In this document: positions 11,570-52,642 of the stretch, piece after piece | Position numbering within the stretch: the first letter of the stretch is position 1 | Layout of the letters: each line of letters opens with the position of its first letter | Assembly (NCBI GenBank): GCA_049521895.1 | Contig: JBEKOJ010000001.1 | Location: 631,114 to 695,113 of the forward strand | Direction: 5' to 3' | DNA from: Candidatus Saccharimonadales bacterium | GTDB lineage: Bacteria; Patescibacteriota; Saccharimonadia; Saccharimonadales; UBA10212 | DNA: 64,000 nucleotides | Made by a program: the position numbers and the translations under genes | The notes under the pieces: model-generated | Databases searched by the model: none | The model's input: the letters and a program-made list of their open reading frames with translations, nothing else | What the model was told of the DNA's origin: nothing

Positions 11570-11657
11570 CAATGGACAAATGGACTAATGAACGAATGGA
11601 CAATACATTGAACATTGAACATTGAACATTGAACATTTTGGACTCCATGAGTCCAAG
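11570..11657. repeat. heptad-periodic AT-rich intergenic repeat block
   Basis: CAATGGACAAATGGACTAATGAACGAATGGACAATA followed by (CATTGAA)x4 at 11605-11632 and the hairpin GGACTCcatGAGTCC. Confidence 0.8.
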
Positions 11658-11692: not shown

Positions 11693-11849
11693 CCCGGCAG
11701 TAGACTTTCGAGTCAGCTCGTCGTCAGATGAGATATTTATTCGATGTCAGCGCTTAATTAATTGCCTAGGACTTACAGCCACCGATATTCGTGCTGACGA
11801 GCTGAAACTTACATGCAAAGTCGAATAATCTCGAAAGCTCACTGCCGGG
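11693..11849. mobile_element. 157-bp palindromic MITE-like element (family 1, long form) behind a relic fpg start
   Basis: Termini are CCCGGCAGTAGACTTTCGAGTCAGCTCG ... AGTCGAATAATCTCGAAAGCTCACTGCCGGG. They are identical to the termini of the 18186-18342 copy in the opposite orientation. Flanked by TAGA/TAGA. Confidence 0.8.
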
Positions 11850-11864
11850 TAGAGACAGATGGCT

Positions 11865-11873
11865 TGATACAAT
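11865..11873 (+). promoter_or_regulatory. extended -10 promoter of fpg
   Basis: TGATACAAT ends 9 nt before ATG 11883. Confidence 0.5.
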
Positions 11874-11882
11874 ATAGAAACT

Positions 11883-12818
11883 ATGCCCGAACTCCCAGAG
11901 GTTGAAACTGTCAAACAAGGTCTGAGCAAATTTTTGCCCAAGCTTGTAATTAAAGATGTCTGGCACGACTGGCCAAAGGGTTTCCCAAACGCGCCAGCAG
12001 ACGTAGCACGCTTTATGGTGGGTGCATCAATCACAGATGTTAAACGGCGGGCAAAAGTCTTAATTATTGGCCTCTCGAGCGGCTACAGCTTGGTTATCCA
12101 TCTTAAAATGACCGGCCAGCTGGTTTTTGTCGGCTCCGCCGACAAGCTAAAAGCTAACAGCTCAAAGCTTAAAGCTGAAGAAAAGTTTGGTGGTGGTCAC
12201 CCTACAAGTTCATTAGTCAATGATTTACCGGATAAAAGTACAAGGGTAGTTATTGATTTCACCAACGGAGCCAAACTTTTCTTCAACGACCAGCGTAAAT
12301 TTGGCTGGATGCGCCTGCTACCTTCAGTGGAAGTGCCGGAGATTGATTTTATGAAAACCGTCGGTCCCGAACCGCTGGACGATGATTTTACAGCTGGTAA
12401 ATTCATAGAGTGCATCCGTGGTCGCAAAAACAGCCCTATCAAGGCAGTTTTGCTGGACCAAAAAGTCCTGGCTGGAATCGGTAATATTTACGCCGATGAG
12501 TCGCTATTTGCTGCTAAAATCCATCCGTTGACCAAAGCAAGTGCCATCTCTCGCACCAAGCTTGTAGCGTTGCATAATGATTTGCGGTCCATACTACGGA
12601 CAGCCATAAAAAAAGGCGGCAGTACAGATAGGAATTACGTTAACGCCGAGGGCAAAAAGGGCAGTTACATCCAGTTTGCACAGGTGTTTAGGCGGGAAGA
12701 ACAGCCGTGCCCACGCTGCGGTACCACCATCCAAAAAATAAGAGTGGCGGGTAGAGGAACGCATATATGTCCCCGATGTCAGAAAATCAGGGACCAGAAG
12801 ATAAGGGACAAAAAATGA
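11883..12818 (+). CDS. mutM: formamidopyrimidine-DNA glycosylase
   Basis: N-terminal MPELPEVETV with catalytic Pro2. H2TH region LLDQKVLAGIGNIYADESLF. C-terminal zinc finger CPRCGTTI..CPRCQ. Confidence 0.93.
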   Translation: MPELPEVETVKQGLSKFLPKLVIKDVWHDWPKGFPNAPADVARFMVGASITDVKRRAKVLIIGLSSGYSLVIHLKMTGQLVFVGSADKLKANSSKLKAEEKFGGGHPTSSLVNDLPDKSTRVVIDFTNGAKLFFNDQRKFGWMRLLPSVEVPEIDFMKTVGPEPLDDDFTAGKFIECIRGRKNSPIKAVLLDQKVLAGIGNIYADESLFAAKIHPLTKASAISRTKLVALHNDLRSILRTAIKKGGSTDRNYVNAEGKKGSYIQFAQVFRREEQPCPRCGTTIQKIRVAGRGTHICPRCQKIRDQKIRDKK

Positions 12819-14073: not shown

Positions 14074-14448
14074 TTACTTATGGGTTTTGCCGGCAGATTT
14101 AGCGGGTTTCCCGGCAGTAGATCTTCGCGTGGCTTTGCCAGCATCCGCTTTGGCGGGTGGTCGCGAAGGCTCACTGCCGGGTTTGACACCCGCGGCTTTG
14201 GCTTCTCTGGCGATCCTTGATTTATAGCGTGCCGCTTTATTCTTATGGATCACAGCTTTTTTGGCGGCTATATCTATAGCTTTGACCGCTACTAGGGCGG
14301 TTTTGGCTATCTGGTCAGCCTTTTTGCCATCAACAGCTTTGGCAAAGGCCTTAAGCGCATTACGCAAGTCGCGTTTGGTGCGTGCATTGCGGGCACCAGC
14401 CTTGGCTGTCACCTTCACACGTTTTTTAGCAGATTTAATAATTGGCAC
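14074..14448 (-). CDS. rpsT: 30S ribosomal protein S20 carrying an in-frame 72-bp element insertion in its C-terminal tail
   Basis: MPIIKSAKKR..VIHKNKAARYKSR is canonical S20. The tail ..GVK-PGSEPSRPPAKADAGKATRRSTAG-KPAK.. is encoded by the palindromic element at 14110-14181. Confidence 0.93.
   Translation of the reverse strand: MPIIKSAKKRVKVTAKAGARNARTKRDLRNALKAFAKAVDGKKADQIAKTALVAVKAIDIAAKKAVIHKNKAARYKSRIAREAKAAGVKPGSEPSRPPAKADAGKATRRSTAGKPAKSAGKTHK
14110..14181. mobile_element. 72-bp palindromic MITE-like element (family 1, short form) in frame within rpsT
   Basis: CCCGGCAGTAGATCTTCGCG..CGCGAAGGCTCACTGCCGGG. 67/72 nt identical to the reverse complement of the 51908-51979 copy. Flanked by TTT/TTT. 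Confidence 0.85.
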
Positions 14449-16285: not shown

Positions 16286-16405
16286 TTGACATCTTACAAT
16301 TCACACTTAACATTTATTTAGCATTTGTCATTTCACAGGTGTTAATGCTACTTGAAAGATGTAAAATAAATGCTCAATGATAAATGAAAAGTGCTAAATG
16401 CTTAA
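16286..16405. repeat. heptad-periodic AT-rich intergenic hairpin
   Basis: The left arm is ..ACATTTATTTAGCATTTGTCATTTCACA. The right arm is AGATGTAAAATAAATGCTCAATGATAAATGAAAAGTGCTAAATG. It shares CATTTGTCATTTCACA with 18606 and AAATGCTCAATG with 14572. Confidence 0.8.
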
Positions 16406-17165
16406 GATGGACGGATTTTTATTAGTTGATAAGCCAGCTGGCATGACATCTCACGATGTTGTCGCAAAAGTGCGAAGCATTTTGCGACAAGTCCAGAGCT
16501 CAGAGCTAAGAGTCCACAGCAAAGACCAAGAACTCTCAGCTCTTGGTTCTCGGCTCTCAGCTCGCGCACCAAAGGTGCGCGTGGGCCATACTGGCACTCT
16601 GGATCCGGCGGCCACCGGCCTAATGATTTTAGTTTTAGGCAAATACACCAAGCGGGCGGGAGAATTCAGCAAGCTGGATAAGACTTATGAGGCGGAGATA
16701 ATTCTTGGAAAAGTTAGTTCAACTGGTGATAGTGAGGGCACGATTAGTAAAACGCAAAATGTAAAAAGCAAAAAGCCAACCGAAAAGGAAATTCAAAAAG
16801 TTTTGGGCACATTTTTGGGTGAGATCCAGCAGACGCCGCCAGCTTTCAGCGCCATAAAAGTAGACGGCCAGCGGGCTTATAGGCTGGCGCGGCAGGGGAA
16901 AGAAGTGAAACTCCAGCCGCGCAAGGTTACAGTGCACAGGTTACAGGTTACAGAATATGAATATCCGACCCTTAAATGCACAACGGAGGTTAGTAGCGGC
17001 ACATATATCCGTTCGCTGGCGACTGATATCGGCGCCAAACTCGGCACCGGCGGCTATTTATCCTCCCTCCGCCGCACCCAAGTCGGCAGTTTTCATCTGG
17101 AAAATGCCCTCAAAATCGACGACCTAACTCCTTCGAACATCGAAACCCGCCTTCGCCCCGCTTAA
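16398..17165 (+). CDS. truB: tRNA pseudouridine(55) synthase
   Basis: LLVDKPAGMTSHDVV..VGHTGTLDPAATG (catalytic Asp). It carries an insertion of about 26 aa (QSSELRVHSKDQELSALGSRLSARA) between these motifs. Confidence 0.9.
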   Translation: MLKMDGFLLVDKPAGMTSHDVVAKVRSILRQVQSSELRVHSKDQELSALGSRLSARAPKVRVGHTGTLDPAATGLMILVLGKYTKRAGEFSKLDKTYEAEIILGKVSSTGDSEGTISKTQNVKSKKPTEKEIQKVLGTFLGEIQQTPPAFSAIKVDGQRAYRLARQGKEVKLQPRKVTVHRLQVTEYEYPTLKCTTEVSSGTYIRSLATDIGAKLGTGGYLSSLRRTQVGSFHLENALKIDDLTPSNIETRLRPA

Positions 17166-17347: not shown

Positions 17348-18121
17348 ATGACTAAAACCGAATTGCCATATTTTGAACGACAACTTCCTATTCGGCCAGA
17401 AGGGCTAGTTAAAAACTACAAAGATGCAGTAAAAGAAAAAGATCGAGTTATTAAAATCGAAGATTTACTAAGGAGAGGCACTTGGCGTGGTGCGCTCGGT
17501 CGAGTGTTTCTTGGCTGGGGGAACGCTAATAGATATAACAATGCCATGGCAGGTCCCGACAGAGAAAGGTCTATTGCTAGGTCCCATGTTAATGCGTCTC
17601 TGGACCTTTATAAAGAACAAGCGAAAAATGAGGCTCGCGCAAAGGGCAAAAATATTGAATTGCTCGAGGATATGCCCCGTAGAAAACGTAAGTATATTGA
17701 ATATCAGCATATGCGCAACGAAGTGAGGGATTTATTGGCTCCACTTATGGACGAATATAATAAGGTTGCTGCTGAGAGTGATCCTTCGGATCATGTATAT
17801 TTCGAGTTCAGTCGTGAAGGTAATAATGAGCTTTCAGAGTTCCATATGTACACCATGCCTTTTACTGATAGCGATGATGGCAGACCCAGTTTTGAGGGCC
17901 GGTTTATAGAGAAGTGGCCACAGAACAAACCTCATAATGACCATGGCAGTTTCCATTACGCCAACTTCGTCCTTAGCGGTCTTGATAATTGGGAGCGTGA
18001 AGAACATGAATTCCGGGCTGCCGAGCGCGTAGTTGAAGCCCTAAAAGATGGGACTATTCATTTTGACGGTGTAGTTAAGCAATCTGACTTAACCCCCAAA
18101 ACTAAAGAAGTAAATCAATAA
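17348..18121 (+). CDS. hypothetical protein (AT-rich accessory ORF)
   Basis: 257-aa ORF with no recognisable motif. Confidence 0.6.
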   Translation: MTKTELPYFERQLPIRPEGLVKNYKDAVKEKDRVIKIEDLLRRGTWRGALGRVFLGWGNANRYNNAMAGPDRERSIARSHVNASLDLYKEQAKNEARAKGKNIELLEDMPRRKRKYIEYQHMRNEVRDLLAPLMDEYNKVAAESDPSDHVYFEFSREGNNELSEFHMYTMPFTDSDDGRPSFEGRFIEKWPQNKPHNDHGSFHYANFVLSGLDNWEREEHEFRAAERVVEALKDGTIHFDGVVKQSDLTPKTKEVNQ

Positions 18122-18144
18122 ACATTGCTAAATCACCTCTGATT

Positions 18145-18153
18145 TGCTATAAT
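18145..18153 (+). promoter_or_regulatory. extended -10 promoter of rpsO
   Basis: TTGCTA-N17-TATAAT with a TGC extension. ATG 18165 is 11 nt downstream. Confidence 0.6.
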
Positions 18154-18164
18154 TGGCCGCAAGA

Positions 18165-18185
18165 ATGATCACCAGTGAGAAGAAG
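18165..18185 (+). pseudogene. ancestral rpsO start (MITSEKK), now separated from the gene body by the element
   Basis: ATG ATC ACC AGT GAG AAG AAG lies directly after the extended -10 TGCTATAAT (18145-18153). This frame runs into TGA at 18294-18296 inside the element. Confidence 0.7.
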
Positions 18186-18342
18186 CCCGGCAGTGAGCTT
18201 TCGAGATTATTCGACTCATCCATGAGGCTTAGCTCGCTGGTGCACCAATCAATAGCAGTAAATCATACGGTCAAGGATGATGTTTATGTCGAATGATGTA
18301 GTTACAGGAGAAGGCGAGCTGACTCGAAAGTCTACTGCCGGG
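18186..18342. mobile_element. 157-bp palindromic MITE-like element (family 1, long form) splitting rpsO
   Basis: CCCGGCAGTGAGCTTTCGAGATTATTCGACT ... CGAGCTGACTCGAAAGTCTACTGCCGGG. Flanked by AAG/AAG. Same length as the 11693 copy, but the 98-bp core is diverged. Confidence 0.85.
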
Positions 18343-18591
18343 AAGGCCAGGATTATATCCGATCTTCAGGCTCACAAAACCGATACCGGTTCGTCCGCAG
18401 TGCAGGTCGGTATTATGACCGAGCGGATTGCCGAGTTGACGGCGCATATGAAGACGCACAAACACGATTTCGCCGCCCGCCGGTCATTGCTGCAACTGGT
18501 CGGCAAACGCAAACGGCTGCTCAAATATATCGCCGCCCAGAGCGGGGATGAGTACCTGGCTTTGATTAAAAAGCTCGGTATTAGACGCTAG
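18277..18591 (+). CDS. rpsO: 30S ribosomal protein S15; its N-terminus is encoded inside an inserted element
   Basis: ..KARIISDLQAHKTDTGSSAVQVGIMTERIAELTAHMKTHKHDFAARRSLL..LGIRR is canonical S15. The probable start is ATG 18286, 8 nt after AAGGA. The ancestral start at 18165 is separated by the 157-bp element. Confidence 0.9.
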   Translation: MMFMSNDVVTGEGELTRKSTAGKARIISDLQAHKTDTGSSAVQVGIMTERIAELTAHMKTHKHDFAARRSLLQLVGKRKRLLKYIAAQSGDEYLALIKKLGIRR

Positions 18592-18596
18592 CACCT

Positions 18597-18714
18597 TAAT
18601 TTTACATTTGTCATTTCACACTTATCATTTATTTATCAGGTGTCATTTCATCAATGATGAATGGTAAATGTCTAAATAAATGTGAAATGTAATCTGTAAA
18701 ATGTTAAATAATCG
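18597..18714. repeat. heptad-periodic AT-rich intergenic hairpin
   Basis: TACATTTGTCATTTCACACTTATCATTTATTTATC ... GGTAAATGTCTAAATAAATGTGAAATGTAATCTGTAAAATG. The left arm has xxCATTT heptads and the right arm has AAATGxx heptads. Confidence 0.8.
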
Positions 18715-18961: not shown

Positions 18962-21097
18962 ATGACTACTATCAATCCGTTTGGCAAAAAAATAATTAAA
19001 GTCAGTACTGACTTTTGTGGCCAGGAGCTCAGCTTGGAAGTAGGGCGTGTAGGCTTTAGGACCAGCGCTTCGGTGGTTGCCCGTTATGGCGATACGGTGG
19101 TGCTAGGCACAGCCATGGTGAGCCCGGAAACTGTTCAGGGGCTGGATTATTTCCCGCTGAGCATTGATTACGAAGAAAAATTTTATGCCGCCGGTAAGAT
19201 TAGCGGCAGCCGGTTTATTAAGCGCGAGGGCCGCCCATCTGATGAAGCGATACTGATTGGCCGTTTGATTGACCGCCCGATACGGCCTCTATGGCCCAAG
19301 GGCTATAGGCACGAAGTACAGGGTGTGGCCACTGTTTTGAGCTTGGACCCGGCATTTAGGCCTGATTCCATAGCAATGATCGTTATGTCCGCCGCCTTTA
19401 TGCTAACCGGCGTACCATTTGAGGGCCCGGTAGCTGGTATACGGGTTGGTTTGGTGAATGGCAAACCCAAGGCTTTTGCCAGCGTAGAAGAATTGGAGCA
19501 AGGCGAACTAGACCTGGTGGTAGCCGGCACCAAAGACGGCGTGATGATGGTAGAAGCTGGCGCTCGCGGGGTCAGCGAGGACGCCGTAGTTGAAGCTATG
19601 GAATACGCCCATAAGGCTATTCAGCCAGCAATTGAACTGCAGAATGAGCTGGTAAAAAAGGTGGGAATAACACCTCAGGAATATAAGCTTATATTGCCCG
19701 ACGAAGATATCCAGAAGCAGGTCAATAAGTGGGTAGAAGGCAAAATGGGCAAAGCCCTGCGTGCCCCGTATCCCGAGCGTAATGATTTAGTCTCCGACCT
19801 GCGCCACAAAATGCACGAGCATTTCCGTAGCCAGCTTGGAGAAGAATATGACAAAGAAGTTAAGGCGGAATGGGATGAGGCCTTTGACATGGCCATCCAC
19901 AAGGACGTGCGGGATGGCATCTTAGATGAAAATATCCGGCCCGATGGCCGCAAATTAACGGAGATACGGCCGCTAAGTAGCGAGGTAGCCTTGCTGCCAA
20001 GGGCCCATGGTTCCAGCCTGTTTACCCGTGGTGTTACCCAGGCATTAAATATTGTTACGCTAGCGCCGCTTTCTTATGCACAAATGGTAGACACCATGGA
20101 ACGTGAAGGTGAACGCCGCTACATGCACCACTACAATGCTCCGGGTTACACCGTTGGCGAGGTGCGCCGTCTGGGAGCCCCAGGCCGGCGTGAAATTGGC
20201 CACGGTTATCTGGCAGAAAAGGCGCTGAGTACCGTTTTACCGACCGAAGCCGATTTTCCTTACACCATCCGCTCGGTTACTGAAATTATGAGCCAAAACG
20301 GCAGCACCTCGATGGCGGCAACTTGCTCCTCGTGCATGGCGTTAATGGACGCCGGTGTACCGCTAAGCGCGCCGGTCAGCGGCATTGCTATGGGCTTGAT
20401 GACCGACGGCACAAAAAATGTTATTTTGAGCGACATTGCCGATGCTGAAGATTTTGCCGGCGATATGGACTTTAAAGTAGCCGGTACTGCCAAAGGTGTT
20501 ACAGCCCTGCAGATGGATATGAAAGTCCACGGATTGTCAGTAGCAGTACTTAAAAAAGCCTTAGAGCAGAGCAGGACCGGCCGGGCGGAGATCCTGCAGC
20601 ACATGCTGTCGGTAATTCCTGAACCTAGAGCCGAGATGAGCCCGTACGCACCACGCGTTGAGGCCATTCAAATTAACCCAGAAAAGATCCGCGAGGTTAT
20701 TGGCAAGGGCGGCGAAACTATCAATAAAATAATTGCTGAAACCGGCGCTGAAATTGATATTAAAGACGACGGCACGGTGATGGTCGCCAGCCCTGATAAA
20801 ACCAGCATTGATGCCGCCATCAAATATATCCGCACGCTGACAGCCGAACCGGAAGTTGGTAAAATATATGAGAACTGCCGGGTCGTAAGCGTTTTAGACT
20901 TTGGCGCCTTTGTGGAAATTATGCCGGGCAAAGAGGGCCTGGTGCACGTCAGCGAGATGAAAGAAGAGCGGGTGGAAAAACCAAGCGATGTGGTCAAAGA
21001 GGGCGATCAAGTAACCGTTAAGCTGATAGCGATTGATGACCGTGGGCGTCTGCAGCTATCCATGAAAGCCGCACAGCGGGAGCTTGATAAGAAATAA
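18962..21097 (+). CDS. pnp: polynucleotide phosphorylase
   Basis: Start at ATG 18962 after AAAAGGAG. Two RNase PH domains, then KH (GKGGETINKI) and S1 (GKIYENCRVVSVLDFGAFVEI). Confidence 0.95.
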   Translation: MTTINPFGKKIIKVSTDFCGQELSLEVGRVGFRTSASVVARYGDTVVLGTAMVSPETVQGLDYFPLSIDYEEKFYAAGKISGSRFIKREGRPSDEAILIGRLIDRPIRPLWPKGYRHEVQGVATVLSLDPAFRPDSIAMIVMSAAFMLTGVPFEGPVAGIRVGLVNGKPKAFASVEELEQGELDLVVAGTKDGVMMVEAGARGVSEDAVVEAMEYAHKAIQPAIELQNELVKKVGITPQEYKLILPDEDIQKQVNKWVEGKMGKALRAPYPERNDLVSDLRHKMHEHFRSQLGEEYDKEVKAEWDEAFDMAIHKDVRDGILDENIRPDGRKLTEIRPLSSEVALLPRAHGSSLFTRGVTQALNIVTLAPLSYAQMVDTMEREGERRYMHHYNAPGYTVGEVRRLGAPGRREIGHGYLAEKALSTVLPTEADFPYTIRSVTEIMSQNGSTSMAATCSSCMALMDAGVPLSAPVSGIAMGLMTDGTKNVILSDIADAEDFAGDMDFKVAGTAKGVTALQMDMKVHGLSVAVLKKALEQSRTGRAEILQHMLSVIPEPRAEMSPYAPRVEAIQINPEKIREVIGKGGETINKIIAETGAEIDIKDDGTVMVASPDKTSIDAAIKYIRTLTAEPEVGKIYENCRVVSVLDFGAFVEIMPGKEGLVHVSEMKEERVEKPSDVVKEGDQVTVKLIAIDDRGRLQLSMKAAQRELDKK

Positions 21098-51446: not shown

Positions 51447-51863
51447 ATGAAAATATTTGCCAAAACCGGCGTAGGTCAGCGTGGCGACACCATTATAGAG
51501 GTGTTAATAAGTATGAGTATCCTGGCGCTAGTGTTGACCGGTGCTTATGTATCCACCAGCCGCAGCTTACAAGACGGCACGGATTCGTCTGACCGCCAGC
51601 AAGCCTTGGCGCTGGCCGAGCAACAAATAGAATTTATTAAAAGCAACCCATCCGCTTACCAACCGCCAACCAATTCGAAAACTAATAGTTTCTGTATTGG
51701 TAACGATAGTAGCATACAAACCGGCGCGAGTTGTACGTTCAACAGCCAGTACACCATGACAGATACTTACAGCGGCGGCCTATTTACTATTGTGGCTACT
51801 TGGCCCAGCGCTGTAGGGTCCGGCGGCCAAAGCCAACTAACACTTTATTACCGCGCCCTATGA
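51447..51863 (+). CDS. minor pilin / pseudopilin
   Basis: ..GQRG then DTIIEVLISMSILALVL (Glu+5). Confidence 0.7.
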   Translation: MKIFAKTGVGQRGDTIIEVLISMSILALVLTGAYVSTSRSLQDGTDSSDRQQALALAEQQIEFIKSNPSAYQPPTNSKTNSFCIGNDSSIQTGASCTFNSQYTMTDTYSGGLFTIVATWPSAVGSGGQSQLTLYYRAL

Positions 51864-52642
51864 AAAACACCCACTCTCCACTCTCCACTCTTCACCTAAG
51901 AGGCTTCCCCGGCAGTGAGCCTTCGCGACCATCCACCTTAGTGGATGCTGGCAAAGCCACGCGAAGATCTACTGCCGGGTTCACCATAGTTGAGCTGCTG
52001 CTGGCTACCTCTGTTTTCTCGATAATTTTGCTGGCAGCTTTAGCCAGCTTTTTGCAGGTGGGCCGGCTATTTTATAAAGGCGTATCATTGACCAACACTC
52101 AGAATACCGCTACCCAAGTACTTAATGATGTCGCTCACAGTCTACAGACTTCCAGCACACTTTCTCTGCCAACCACTGCCAATGGCTACACCTATACATG
52201 CATTGGAAACGCCCGTTATACCTACACTACCACTAATATCAGTGGCCAGCAGGTAGCGGTGGCGGCTAACCTGTCGGATTCACCCAACTATGGTAGTGGA
52301 GCCAACGGCGGCAACTTTGGCCTGCTTAAAGATACCTTACCAGGCAGCTCCGGCTGCGCGGTCCCATGCTGGCCCGCCAGCAGCTGTAGCAACGGCCAAG
52401 TAGTGTTTAGTAATCCGGTAGAGATGCTGGGCGACCAAATGCGCGTGGCGACTTTTAGCATAAGTAGTGTATCTGGCGTCCAAAACCTCTATAATATCAA
52501 AATGGTAGTGGCTTATGGGGATAGTTCGGTTATGAGCTTTAGTAATCCCGGGCAACCTGTGTGCATAGGCAATTCGCAAAACCAGGCATTTTGCTCGGTT
52601 GTCAACCTCTCTACTACTGTTTTTCAGGGGGTGCGTTCATGA
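51860..52642 (+). CDS. minor pilin / pseudopilin with repeat-expanded leader peptide
   Basis: The ATG at 51860 forms an ATGA overlap. Leader MKNTHSPLSTLHLRGF-[PGSEPSRPSTLVDAGKATRRSTAG]-FTIVELLLATSVF. The bracketed residues are encoded by the 72-bp element. Confidence 0.8.
   Translation: MKNTHSPLSTLHLRGFPGSEPSRPSTLVDAGKATRRSTAGFTIVELLLATSVFSIILLAALASFLQVGRLFYKGVSLTNTQNTATQVLNDVAHSLQTSSTLSLPTTANGYTYTCIGNARYTYTTTNISGQQVAVAANLSDSPNYGSGANGGNFGLLKDTLPGSSGCAVPCWPASSCSNGQVVFSNPVEMLGDQMRVATFSISSVSGVQNLYNIKMVVAYGDSSVMSFSNPGQPVCIGNSQNQAFCSVVNLSTTVFQGVRS
51908..51979. mobile_element. 72-bp palindromic MITE-like element (family 1, short form) in frame in a pseudopilin leader
   Basis: CCCGGCAGTGAGCCTTCGCGACCATCCACCTTAGTGGATGCTGGCAAAGCCACGCGAAGATCTACTGCCGGG. 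Flanked by TTC/TTC. Confidence 0.85.

Follow-up and report, generated by a model that had tools for sequence, protein, structure and literature searches.

A palindromic MITE-like element splits rpsO in Saccharibacteria and probably provides the translation start of ribosomal protein S15

The 64,000-nucleotide stretch analysed here (the window; positions are counted from its first letter) lies on contig JBEKOJ010000001.1 of a Candidatus Saccharimonadales bacterium and carries rpsO, the gene for ribosomal protein S15, split near its 5' end by a palindromic element of 157 bp. The source names of close S15 and Fpg homologues also point to Candidatus Saccharibacteria (TM7) as the host group. The gene order is truB (16398-17165), rpsO (18286-18591) and pnp (~18962-21097), and relatives have the same order. 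A preliminary description of the locus, made from the letters of the window, agrees with what we found there (Table 1). An extended -10 motif precedes an ATG and the codons MITSEKK, the element lies between two AAG triplets, and the old frame ends at a TGA inside the element after 43 codons. The S15 body is in frame with ATG codons at 18277, 18280 and 18286, all within the element and close to an AAGGA motif. Removal of the element together with one AAG gives MITSEKKARIISDLQAHKTDTGS, which matches the 88-amino-acid (aa) S15 of relatives (MITSEKKAKVTSDLQAHKTDTGS...), and the S15 N-terminus is thus restored as had been proposed.

In a promoter-motif scan, the sole + strand sigma-70-like site upstream of S15 was the one in front of the old start. 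Its extended -10 motif ends 11 nt before ATG 18165, suggesting that the rpsO mRNA is near-leaderless. Filled loci retain the native promoter at a distance of 11 nt from the old ATG, with equivalent promoter-like sites in relatives L001 and L004, and a TGnTAnAAT-11 nt-ATG spacing was also found upstream of rpsO in L007 and L023, where the site is empty. The open reading frame (ORF) that starts at ATG 18165, hereafter the upstream ORF, is annotated as a 43-aa gene by some gene callers and had no match in a Pfam search.

Among the best 120 S15 homologues, 113 are 88 aa long with native-type N-termini (MITSEKK, 55; MITGEKK, 21). The empty junction predicted in the preliminary description, GAGAAGAAGGC, was matched in relatives, namely L007 (GAGAAGAAGGCTAAGG) and L023 (GAGAAGAAGGCCAAG); the S15 encoded at the empty site starts with MITSEKKAK... 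and has 88 aa, and L023 shares with the window all 21 nt ahead of the insertion site. The empty relatives have no termini of the element family in 4-9 kb, including the site in the S20 gene described below. An extended S15 was found in seven protein clusters, whose loci represent five lineages, and all of them carry a homologous element with inverted-repeat termini; no relative was found to have the longer N-terminus without them. With E marking the element, the junctions read EKK/E/KAR in the window (157 bp), EKK/E/KAK in both L004 and L005 (158 bp each), EK/E/KKAQ in L001 (158 bp; the element is identical in L002, L003, L012 and L021) and EK/E/KKAK in L022 (160 bp). Eight contigs, drawn from different samples and from three data sources (ENA, JGI and Logan), have the same arrangement as the window itself, and over 455 nt the three that were compared with it show one substitution. 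The insertion, for which an assembly error had been considered, is therefore no assembly artefact.

The 20-nt inverted-repeat arms of the rpsO element are 85% complementary. The 20-nt terminus occurs six times in the window with up to three mismatches, against 0.01 expected by chance, indicating that it is no chance palindrome. These six sites, a recurrence that the preliminary description had suggested looking for, are the ends of four complete copies in 64 kb. The copies fall into two size classes, 157 bp (the rpsO copy and one in opposite orientation at 11693-11849) and 72 bp (14110-14181 and 51908-51979), and the outer termini are common to all four. The two 157-bp copies share ~30 nt at each end and differ in their interiors. 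Across the family, copies are 72 or 155-160 bp long and are flanked by duplications of 3-5 bp (AAG, TTC, AAA and TCTA in the window; CAGA, TAAG and TATAA in other contigs), a variability of target duplication that is unusual for a miniature inverted-repeat transposable element (MITE). The element is nevertheless MITE-like, because it has terminal inverted repeats, target duplications, a small size, several copies per genome and empty sites in relatives. No terminus pair wider than 157 bp was found in the window in a search for an autonomous insertion sequence with the same termini, and the peptides encoded by the element copies had no Pfam match.

The RNA of the rpsO element has a predicted folding energy of -56.8 kcal/mol (z = -3.7). 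A consensus fold was derived from an alignment of ten distinct long copies from the window and metagenome contigs (five from rpsO and five from elsewhere), the ends of which are nearly invariant. The consensus hairpin comprises 29 pairs (19 + 10), with 98.6% of the cells paired as compared to 29-42% with a slid partner. Five pairs show compensatory double changes, and the observed covariation score was reached by none of 500 shuffles; in the inner helix, 4 of the 10 pairs show such changes. A scan of the whole window with Rfam at the gathering score returned two tRNAs only, with no match on the element and no rpsO leader RNA. Two G.U pairs of the stem are invariant in all ten long copies and form only in the sense-strand RNA, and one of them adjoins a C-G pair (alignment columns 10/152, 12/150 and 13/149, corresponding to 18195, 18197 and 18198 paired with 18333, 18331 and 18330 in the window). 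A similar U-G/C-G motif is recognised by S15 in its mRNA operators (PMC10931766); the step in the element is family-wide and not specific to rpsO, and is only a lead.

The family looks rare, and it appears to be small and restricted to Saccharibacteria. The exact 20-nt terminus had four hits in 185,579 species genomes, all in unrelated high-GC phyla and none with a matching second end. As this collection lacks the window's own genome, about four chance hits were expected by our own estimate and none of the hits was in Saccharibacteria, the scan gives no taxonomic distribution. Eight genuine contigs with the exact terminus were found in JGI metagenomes, and viral contigs scanned for both termini gave no hits.

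All five rpsO copies contain AAGG(A/T) followed after 8-9 nt by an ATG or GTG in the S15 frame, at element position 101-104 and in the same alignment columns, and the column of this restart codon corresponds to ATG 18286 of the window. The five long copies from outside rpsO have neither the AAGG(A/T) nor an in-frame start, and they also lack the 2-nt indel that puts GTG into the exit frame. A Shine-Dalgarno (SD)-like motif at such a spacing occurs at ~2% of random positions, and pnp in the window genome has AAAGGAG-8-ATG. An open exit frame was also considered as a trait specific to rpsO copies and was rejected, as at least 18 codons are open at the exit end of every long copy.

The upstream ORF encodes a peptide of 37-43 codons in the filled lineages. 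Its stop lies 5 nt before the restart codon in L001, L004 and L005 (TAA) and 8 nt after it in the window and L022 (TGA or TAA). In all lineages, the end of the upstream ORF is thus no more than 10 nt away from the restart codon, and termination-reinitiation therefore probably contributes to S15 initiation. The offset between the upstream ORF and the S15 frame is not conserved, because element plus duplication amounts to 160, 161 or 163 nt depending on the lineage. In L005, where the stop of the upstream ORF is at position 94, the S15 frame is closed up to the GTG, which comes right after a TGA (TGA-GTG). In the consensus fold, the SD-like motif and the start fall into a stretch of the hairpin where pairing is not conserved.

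The conserved SD-like motif and start in five filled lineages, the variable offset and the purifying selection described below support the internal restart put forward in the preliminary description, and S15 is probably expressed from a start inside the element. Homology with the relatives and the SD spacing favour ATG 18286, which is the likeliest start codon; ATG 18277 and ATG 18280 would be in-frame alternatives. As judged from the sequence, the chances that this restart is coupled to translation of the upstream ORF are about even, and independent SD-led initiation on the same mRNA would yield an identical protein.

Wherever dS was measurable, dN/dS of the S15 body among filled lineages was 0.065-0.15 (close pair L022-L004: dS 0.58, omega 0.087), and neither stops nor frameshifts were found in the S15 bodies. 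This purifying selection rules out a dead rpsO, and the gene with its element appears to be still functional. The restart product from ATG 18286 matches Pfam Ribosomal_S15 (PF00312) with 99.7 bits (cut-off 31), profile positions 1-81 of 81 aligning with residues 20-100. In the AlphaFold2 model, the four-helix S15 fold is kept and residues 1-17 form a coil with a pLDDT of ~44; the N-terminus of S15 is thus predicted to consist of ~19 element-encoded, disordered residues. The element-encoded N-terminus anticipated in the preliminary description holds, and the count, given there as ~17-20 residues, is exactly 19 from ATG 18286 or 22 from ATG 18277. That description also called S15 essential, which is overstated, given that Escherichia coli rpsO deletions are viable but cold-sensitive (PMC10931766).

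Table 1. Features of the rpsO locus and of the other element copies in the window
Feature	Position	Strand	Description
rpsO native promoter-like site	18125..18153	+	TTGCTA-17 nt-TATAAT; extended -10 TGCTATAAT at 18145-18153, upstream TG; 10/12 matches
Upstream ORF	18165..18296	+	MITSEKK (native codons 1-7), 36 element-encoded codons, TGA 18294-18296; 43 codons
Left target-site duplication copy	18183..18185	+	AAG, Lys codon 7; empty sites have one AAG fewer
MITE-like palindromic element, long form, rpsO subtype	18186..18342	+	157 bp
Left terminal inverted repeat	18186..18205	+	CCCGGCAGTGAGCTTTCGAG; nearly invariant over 10 copies
Inner helix left arm	18229..18238	+	TTAGCTCGCT; pairs with 18313-18322 in consensus fold
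Shine-Dalgarno-like AAGGA	18273..18277	+	8 nt ahead of ATG 18286
S15 coding sequence as probably now expressed	18286..18591	+	19 element-encoded residues, duplicated Lys, S15 body; 101 aa + stop
Inner helix right arm	18313..18322	+	GGCGAGCTGA; consensus fold
Right terminal inverted repeat	18323..18342	+	CTCGAAAGTCTACTGCCGGG; encodes ...TRKSTAG of the predicted new S15 N-terminus
Right target-site duplication copy	18343..18345	+	AAG, first host-derived codon of the S15 predicted to be expressed
Second 157-bp copy	11693..11849	-	Same ends, different interior; cuts ancestral fpg start after codon 7/8
72-bp short-form copy	14110..14181	-	In frame, C-terminal tail of ribosomal protein S20; encodes PGSEPSRPPAKADAGKATRRSTAG
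72-bp short-form copy	51908..51979	+	In frame, leader peptide of prepilin-like protein; encodes PGSEPSRPSTLVDAGKATRRSTAG

We propose that transcription would start from the native promoter and that the native, near-leaderless ATG 18165 would still be used, giving a 43-codon peptide that ends inside the element. Ribosomes translating into the left arm would keep the 29-bp stem open and would terminate beside the new start, where S15 initiation, most likely at ATG 18286, would be served by the element-borne SD-like AAGGA in the weakly structured interior of the hairpin. In the product, the first 6-7 native S15 residues would be swapped for ~19 element-encoded, probably disordered residues, followed by the complete S15 domain. 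On this account, rpsO would owe its continued function to the repeat, as the source of a ribosome-binding site, a start codon and a new N-terminus.

The internal start might be used independently of the upstream ORF, from an element-borne promoter or by direct 30S binding, with the upstream ORF being a relic. MITE-borne promoters are documented (PMC10969869), the SD-like motif and start are unpaired in the consensus fold, so direct 30S binding would be possible, and a GGATAAT lies just upstream of the GTG in relatives. However, no + strand sigma-70-like site was detected within the element of the window, L001 or L004, and the start of the upstream ORF, the promoter spacing and the stop beside the restart are kept in five lineages and in two frames, which makes this explanation unlikely. 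Programmed frameshifting inside the element could instead fuse the upstream ORF to S15 with an internal insert of ~50 residues, as the two frames overlap at 18262-18296 in the window. The shift that would be required differs among lineages, with 160 and 163 nt leaving a remainder of 1 and 161 nt a remainder of 2, no slippery motif was seen at the stop when the sequence was read, and in L005 no fusion is possible, since the upstream ORF stops (position 94) before the S15 frame opens (position 102). The variable offset and the non-overlapping frames of L005 exclude frameshifting as a general mechanism, and we give such a fusion almost no credence. That rpsO is a pseudogene, tolerated because S15 is dispensable in some bacteria as the viable E. 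coli deletion strains illustrate, or that the arrangement is an assembly artefact, is scarcely believable in view of the low dN/dS, the intact S15 bodies and the presence of the same locus in eight independent contigs and five diverged lineages.

Native S15 (MITSEKK-ARIIS...) could also still be made, by ribosomes bypassing from AAG 18183 to AAG 18343 or by precise removal of the hairpin from the RNA. The AAG/AAG flanks occur in five of five lineages, while at adjacent Lys codons either AAA or AAG is used. Changes in the pre-element codons are confined to synonymous or native-type ones, as if selection for S15 still acted on them, and a strong hairpin follows directly after the take-off codon. 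But the gap would be 157-160 nt, the next codon is CCC and only seven residues would have been made at take-off; moreover, the conserved SD-like motif and in-frame start would be left unexplained, no intron-like RNA family was matched in Rfam, and young insertions explain the codon pattern equally well. The AAG/AAG identity in all five lineages is in addition what a target duplication automatically yields. We consider bypass or excision highly improbable. Only marginally wider, and still very unlikely, is the view that native S15 is delivered by bypass or RNA processing or that the hairpin is kept as a regulatory leader of the natively leaderless rpsO; the leader idea would rest on start access gated by the upstream ORF and on the stem step that resembles the S15 operator motif.

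Several observations weigh against the restart inside the element that we prefer. Across all five filled lineages, conservation looks complete, and of the native S15 type, at both AAG codons and at the seven codons before the element, and the latter still encode native S15 N-termini. This conservation fits continued synthesis of native S15 and not a plain restart unless the insertions are young, and a pure restart would account for the native codons only in that case. SD-like motifs precede only about a quarter of the long ORFs of the window, suggesting that SD dependence in the host organism is partial. The 19 + 10-pair stem around the start could be a substrate of RNase III, which would cut inside the new coding region, and RNase III cleavage has been reported for Correia elements (PMC10969869). 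The subtype with the SD-like motif and start is known only from rpsO, and adaptation specific to rpsO is therefore inseparable from a feature of the subtype. Finally, the start codon, the coupling and the new N-terminus are predictions from sequence.

Both 72-bp copies are read in frame by their host genes. The first lies in rpsT (S20; 14074-14448, - strand), in the Lys/Ala-rich tail beyond the Pfam S20 domain, and this tail is uninterrupted in relatives L002 and L027. The second lies in an ORF at 51860-52642 for a prepilin-like protein, where the final ...AG of the copy and a duplicated Phe restore the G/F junction just ahead of the N-methylation motif; the insert would presumably be cleaved off together with the leader peptide. 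The peptides encoded by the two copies are nearly identical. An intergenic copy in L019 (409-564, - strand) is 156 bp long and open from end to end over 52 codons in the PGSE...STAG frame, indicating that the long form is also readable in frame. These copies suggest that the family is built for in-frame read-through, like the Rickettsia palindromic elements (RPEs). A search with the concatenated 48-aa short-form peptides gave three word-sharing candidates and no scoring hit, and an exhaustive HMMER search in which the S20 tail was the query gave no hit at E <= 0.001; a signal of 24 aa is hard to detect in this way, and the negative outcome is no evidence for a rarity of in-frame copies.

The second 157-bp copy has hit another gene, fpg. 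Upstream of it, the window reads TATAAT-GGAGGT-ATG followed by CCG GAG TTA CCA GAA GTA GA (stub ATG 11670), and at the empty site of L030 (L031 is similar) TATAAT is followed after 6 nt by ATG CCG GAG TTA CCT GAA GTT GAA ACA, the true fpg start. Because these empty-site relatives (L030 and L031, around 1501) hold only a start of the stub type, the stub of the window is the ancestral start. On the 3' side of the copy, an extended -10 motif (TGATACAAT) and a complete new N-terminus, MPELPEVETV, are followed by the full Fpg protein, with the functional ATG at 11883, 33 nt downstream of the element. The codons of the new N-terminus differ from those of the stub at synonymous sites. The same arrangement was found in L013 (3145-3530), whose Fpg is 78% identical. 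Between the window and L013, the 20 nt of the stub are identical and the orthologous fpg-adjacent elements are 87% identical in the interior and 98% at the ends, while only 46% of the fpg third-codon positions are identical. The catalytic nucleophile of Fpg is its N-terminal proline, and an N-terminal extension would therefore not be tolerated. The rescue of fpg by a regenerated N-terminus, instead of a restart with an extension, may be owing to this proline requirement. Upstream of the fpg stub (11622-11655) there is also a tandem CATTGAA heptamer in ~4 copies.

The rpsO element copies share derived characters that are not found in other copies, which is evidence that they represent one element lineage. 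Sequence comparison also points to a patchy distribution of the filled state over the host tree, as the PNPase of the window is 89-95% identical to that of the empty L007 and 84-87% to that of the empty L023, and only 75-82% to those of the filled L001 and L022. The four rpsO copies from outside the window are 79-89% identical to one another in the element interior and 63-72% to the window copy, with the ends at 93-98%. In the same comparisons, rpsO third-codon positions are 41-51% identical, except in the close L022-L004 pair (74%), and the elements thus look younger than the host genes. The insertion point is shifted by one AAG between two groups, a shift that separates even the closely related hosts L004 and L022, and the pre-element codons of the filled lineages encode common native N-termini that differ only by synonymous or native-type changes. 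These data would fit recurrent insertion or lateral spread, after the hosts had split, of a subtype already bearing the restart module; a single old insertion, strongly constrained and precisely lost many times, would fit as well. Comparison of element and host phylogenies yielded only 1-3 informative sites per split, too few and in conflict with one another, and the counts of a triplet test, 11/5/4, could not be polarised. The contigs L001 and L021 match exactly along ~1.7 kb apart from one 330-nt patch (columns 700-1050, the 3' end of rpsO and the spacer) with 40-70% mismatches, reflecting either recombination between diverged Saccharibacteria lineages or a chimeric assembly.

Based on the open 156-bp copy of L019 and the 72-bp copies read in frame in S20 and the prepilin, we hypothesize that a 156-bp copy readable in frame may at first have given a tolerated S15 with an insert. 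The SD-like motif and in-frame start could then have taken over, after which frame-breaking indels would have been neutral, hence the lengths of 157, 158 and 160 bp.

Other features lie around the gene. Between truB and rpsO there is a 257-aa ORF (17348-18121) without a Pfam match, and the equivalent position is occupied by a 202-aa ORF in L023 and a 326-aa ORF in L007, likewise without Pfam matches. At 18600-18710, in the 370-nt spacer between rpsO and pnp, there are AT-rich 'cattt/aaatg' repeats and then a GGGTGA...TCACCC hairpin before pnp. A -10 box, often the extended TGnTAnAAT, merely 6-11 nt before the ATG and without SD was seen for rpsO and fpg (window at 18125-18167 and 11860-11885, L007, L023, L030 and L031), and near-leaderless mRNAs may be common in the host organism.

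So far, mobile palindromic repeats within genes have been familiar mainly from Rickettsia, as in-frame 'passenger peptides'; in rpsO, a repeat breaks the frame of a core ribosomal protein gene, and at least five diverged lineages of Saccharibacteria show this arrangement, by persistence or by recurrence. It would be a natural example of a selfish insertion into a highly expressed core gene that was tolerated and then built into the gene. The two rescues in one genome, of rpsO and of fpg, fit the idea that the N-terminal requirements of the protein dictate the route. As far as the searched literature shows, this repeat family of the Candidate Phyla Radiation (CPR) has not been described before: our search found no paper linking Saccharibacteria or the CPR to palindromic elements or MITEs and no precedent for a MITE combined with reinitiation in bacteria, and the terms 'start codon', 'translation initiation', 'ribosome binding' and 'ribosomal protein' are absent from a 2024 review of prokaryotic MITEs (PMC10969869). 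For annotation, it should be kept in mind that gene callers give a 101-104-aa 'extended' S15 without noting the element.

Among known systems, RPEs are short palindromic mobile repeats that insert into ORFs in frame and add conserved peptides to the host proteins by read-through (PMC10969869), as the 72-bp copies and the L019 copy do or could do. The likeness drawn here is one of behaviour. The 72-bp copies are in frame within ORFs, as is typical of RPEs; the rpsO copy is not, since it is out of frame (157 + 3 nt), splits the gene and would supply a new start. Different from RPEs, the present family also looks rare, and its hosts are Saccharibacteria instead of Rickettsia. Correia, ERIC and other MITEs likewise have terminal inverted repeats, short target duplications, hairpin transcripts and effects on adjacent genes, and the effects of Correia-type elements involve element-borne promoters, integration host factor (IHF) sites and RNase III or RNase E processing in untranslated regions (PMC10969869). 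In contrast, the rpsO element, in which no internal promoter was detected, would equip a ribosomal protein gene with a ribosome-binding site and a start codon and would encode the N-terminal residues of the protein.

Translational bypassing, as in T4 gene 60 and mitochondrial byp, likewise involves an insert between identical codons and a hairpin at take-off. Known bypass gaps are ~27-55 nt, and gene 60 has both a stop codon immediately behind its take-off codon and a nascent-peptide signal. The rpsO gap is ~3 times longer than in these cases, no stop follows the take-off codon, at which the nascent chain would have seven residues, and the conserved internal start would make bypass unnecessary; with a gap of 157-160 nt and a readable CCC, the locus was rejected as a bypass site. 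In termination-reinitiation coupling, there is likewise an upstream stop next to the downstream start, here 5 nt before or 8 nt after it, and an SD-like motif upstream. Unlike in ordinary coupling, the two 'cistrons' of rpsO are halves of one ancestral gene joined by a mobile element, and the coupling is predicted. Taken together, the rpsO case appears to work like an RPE-type coding repeat combined with ordinary bacterial translational coupling.

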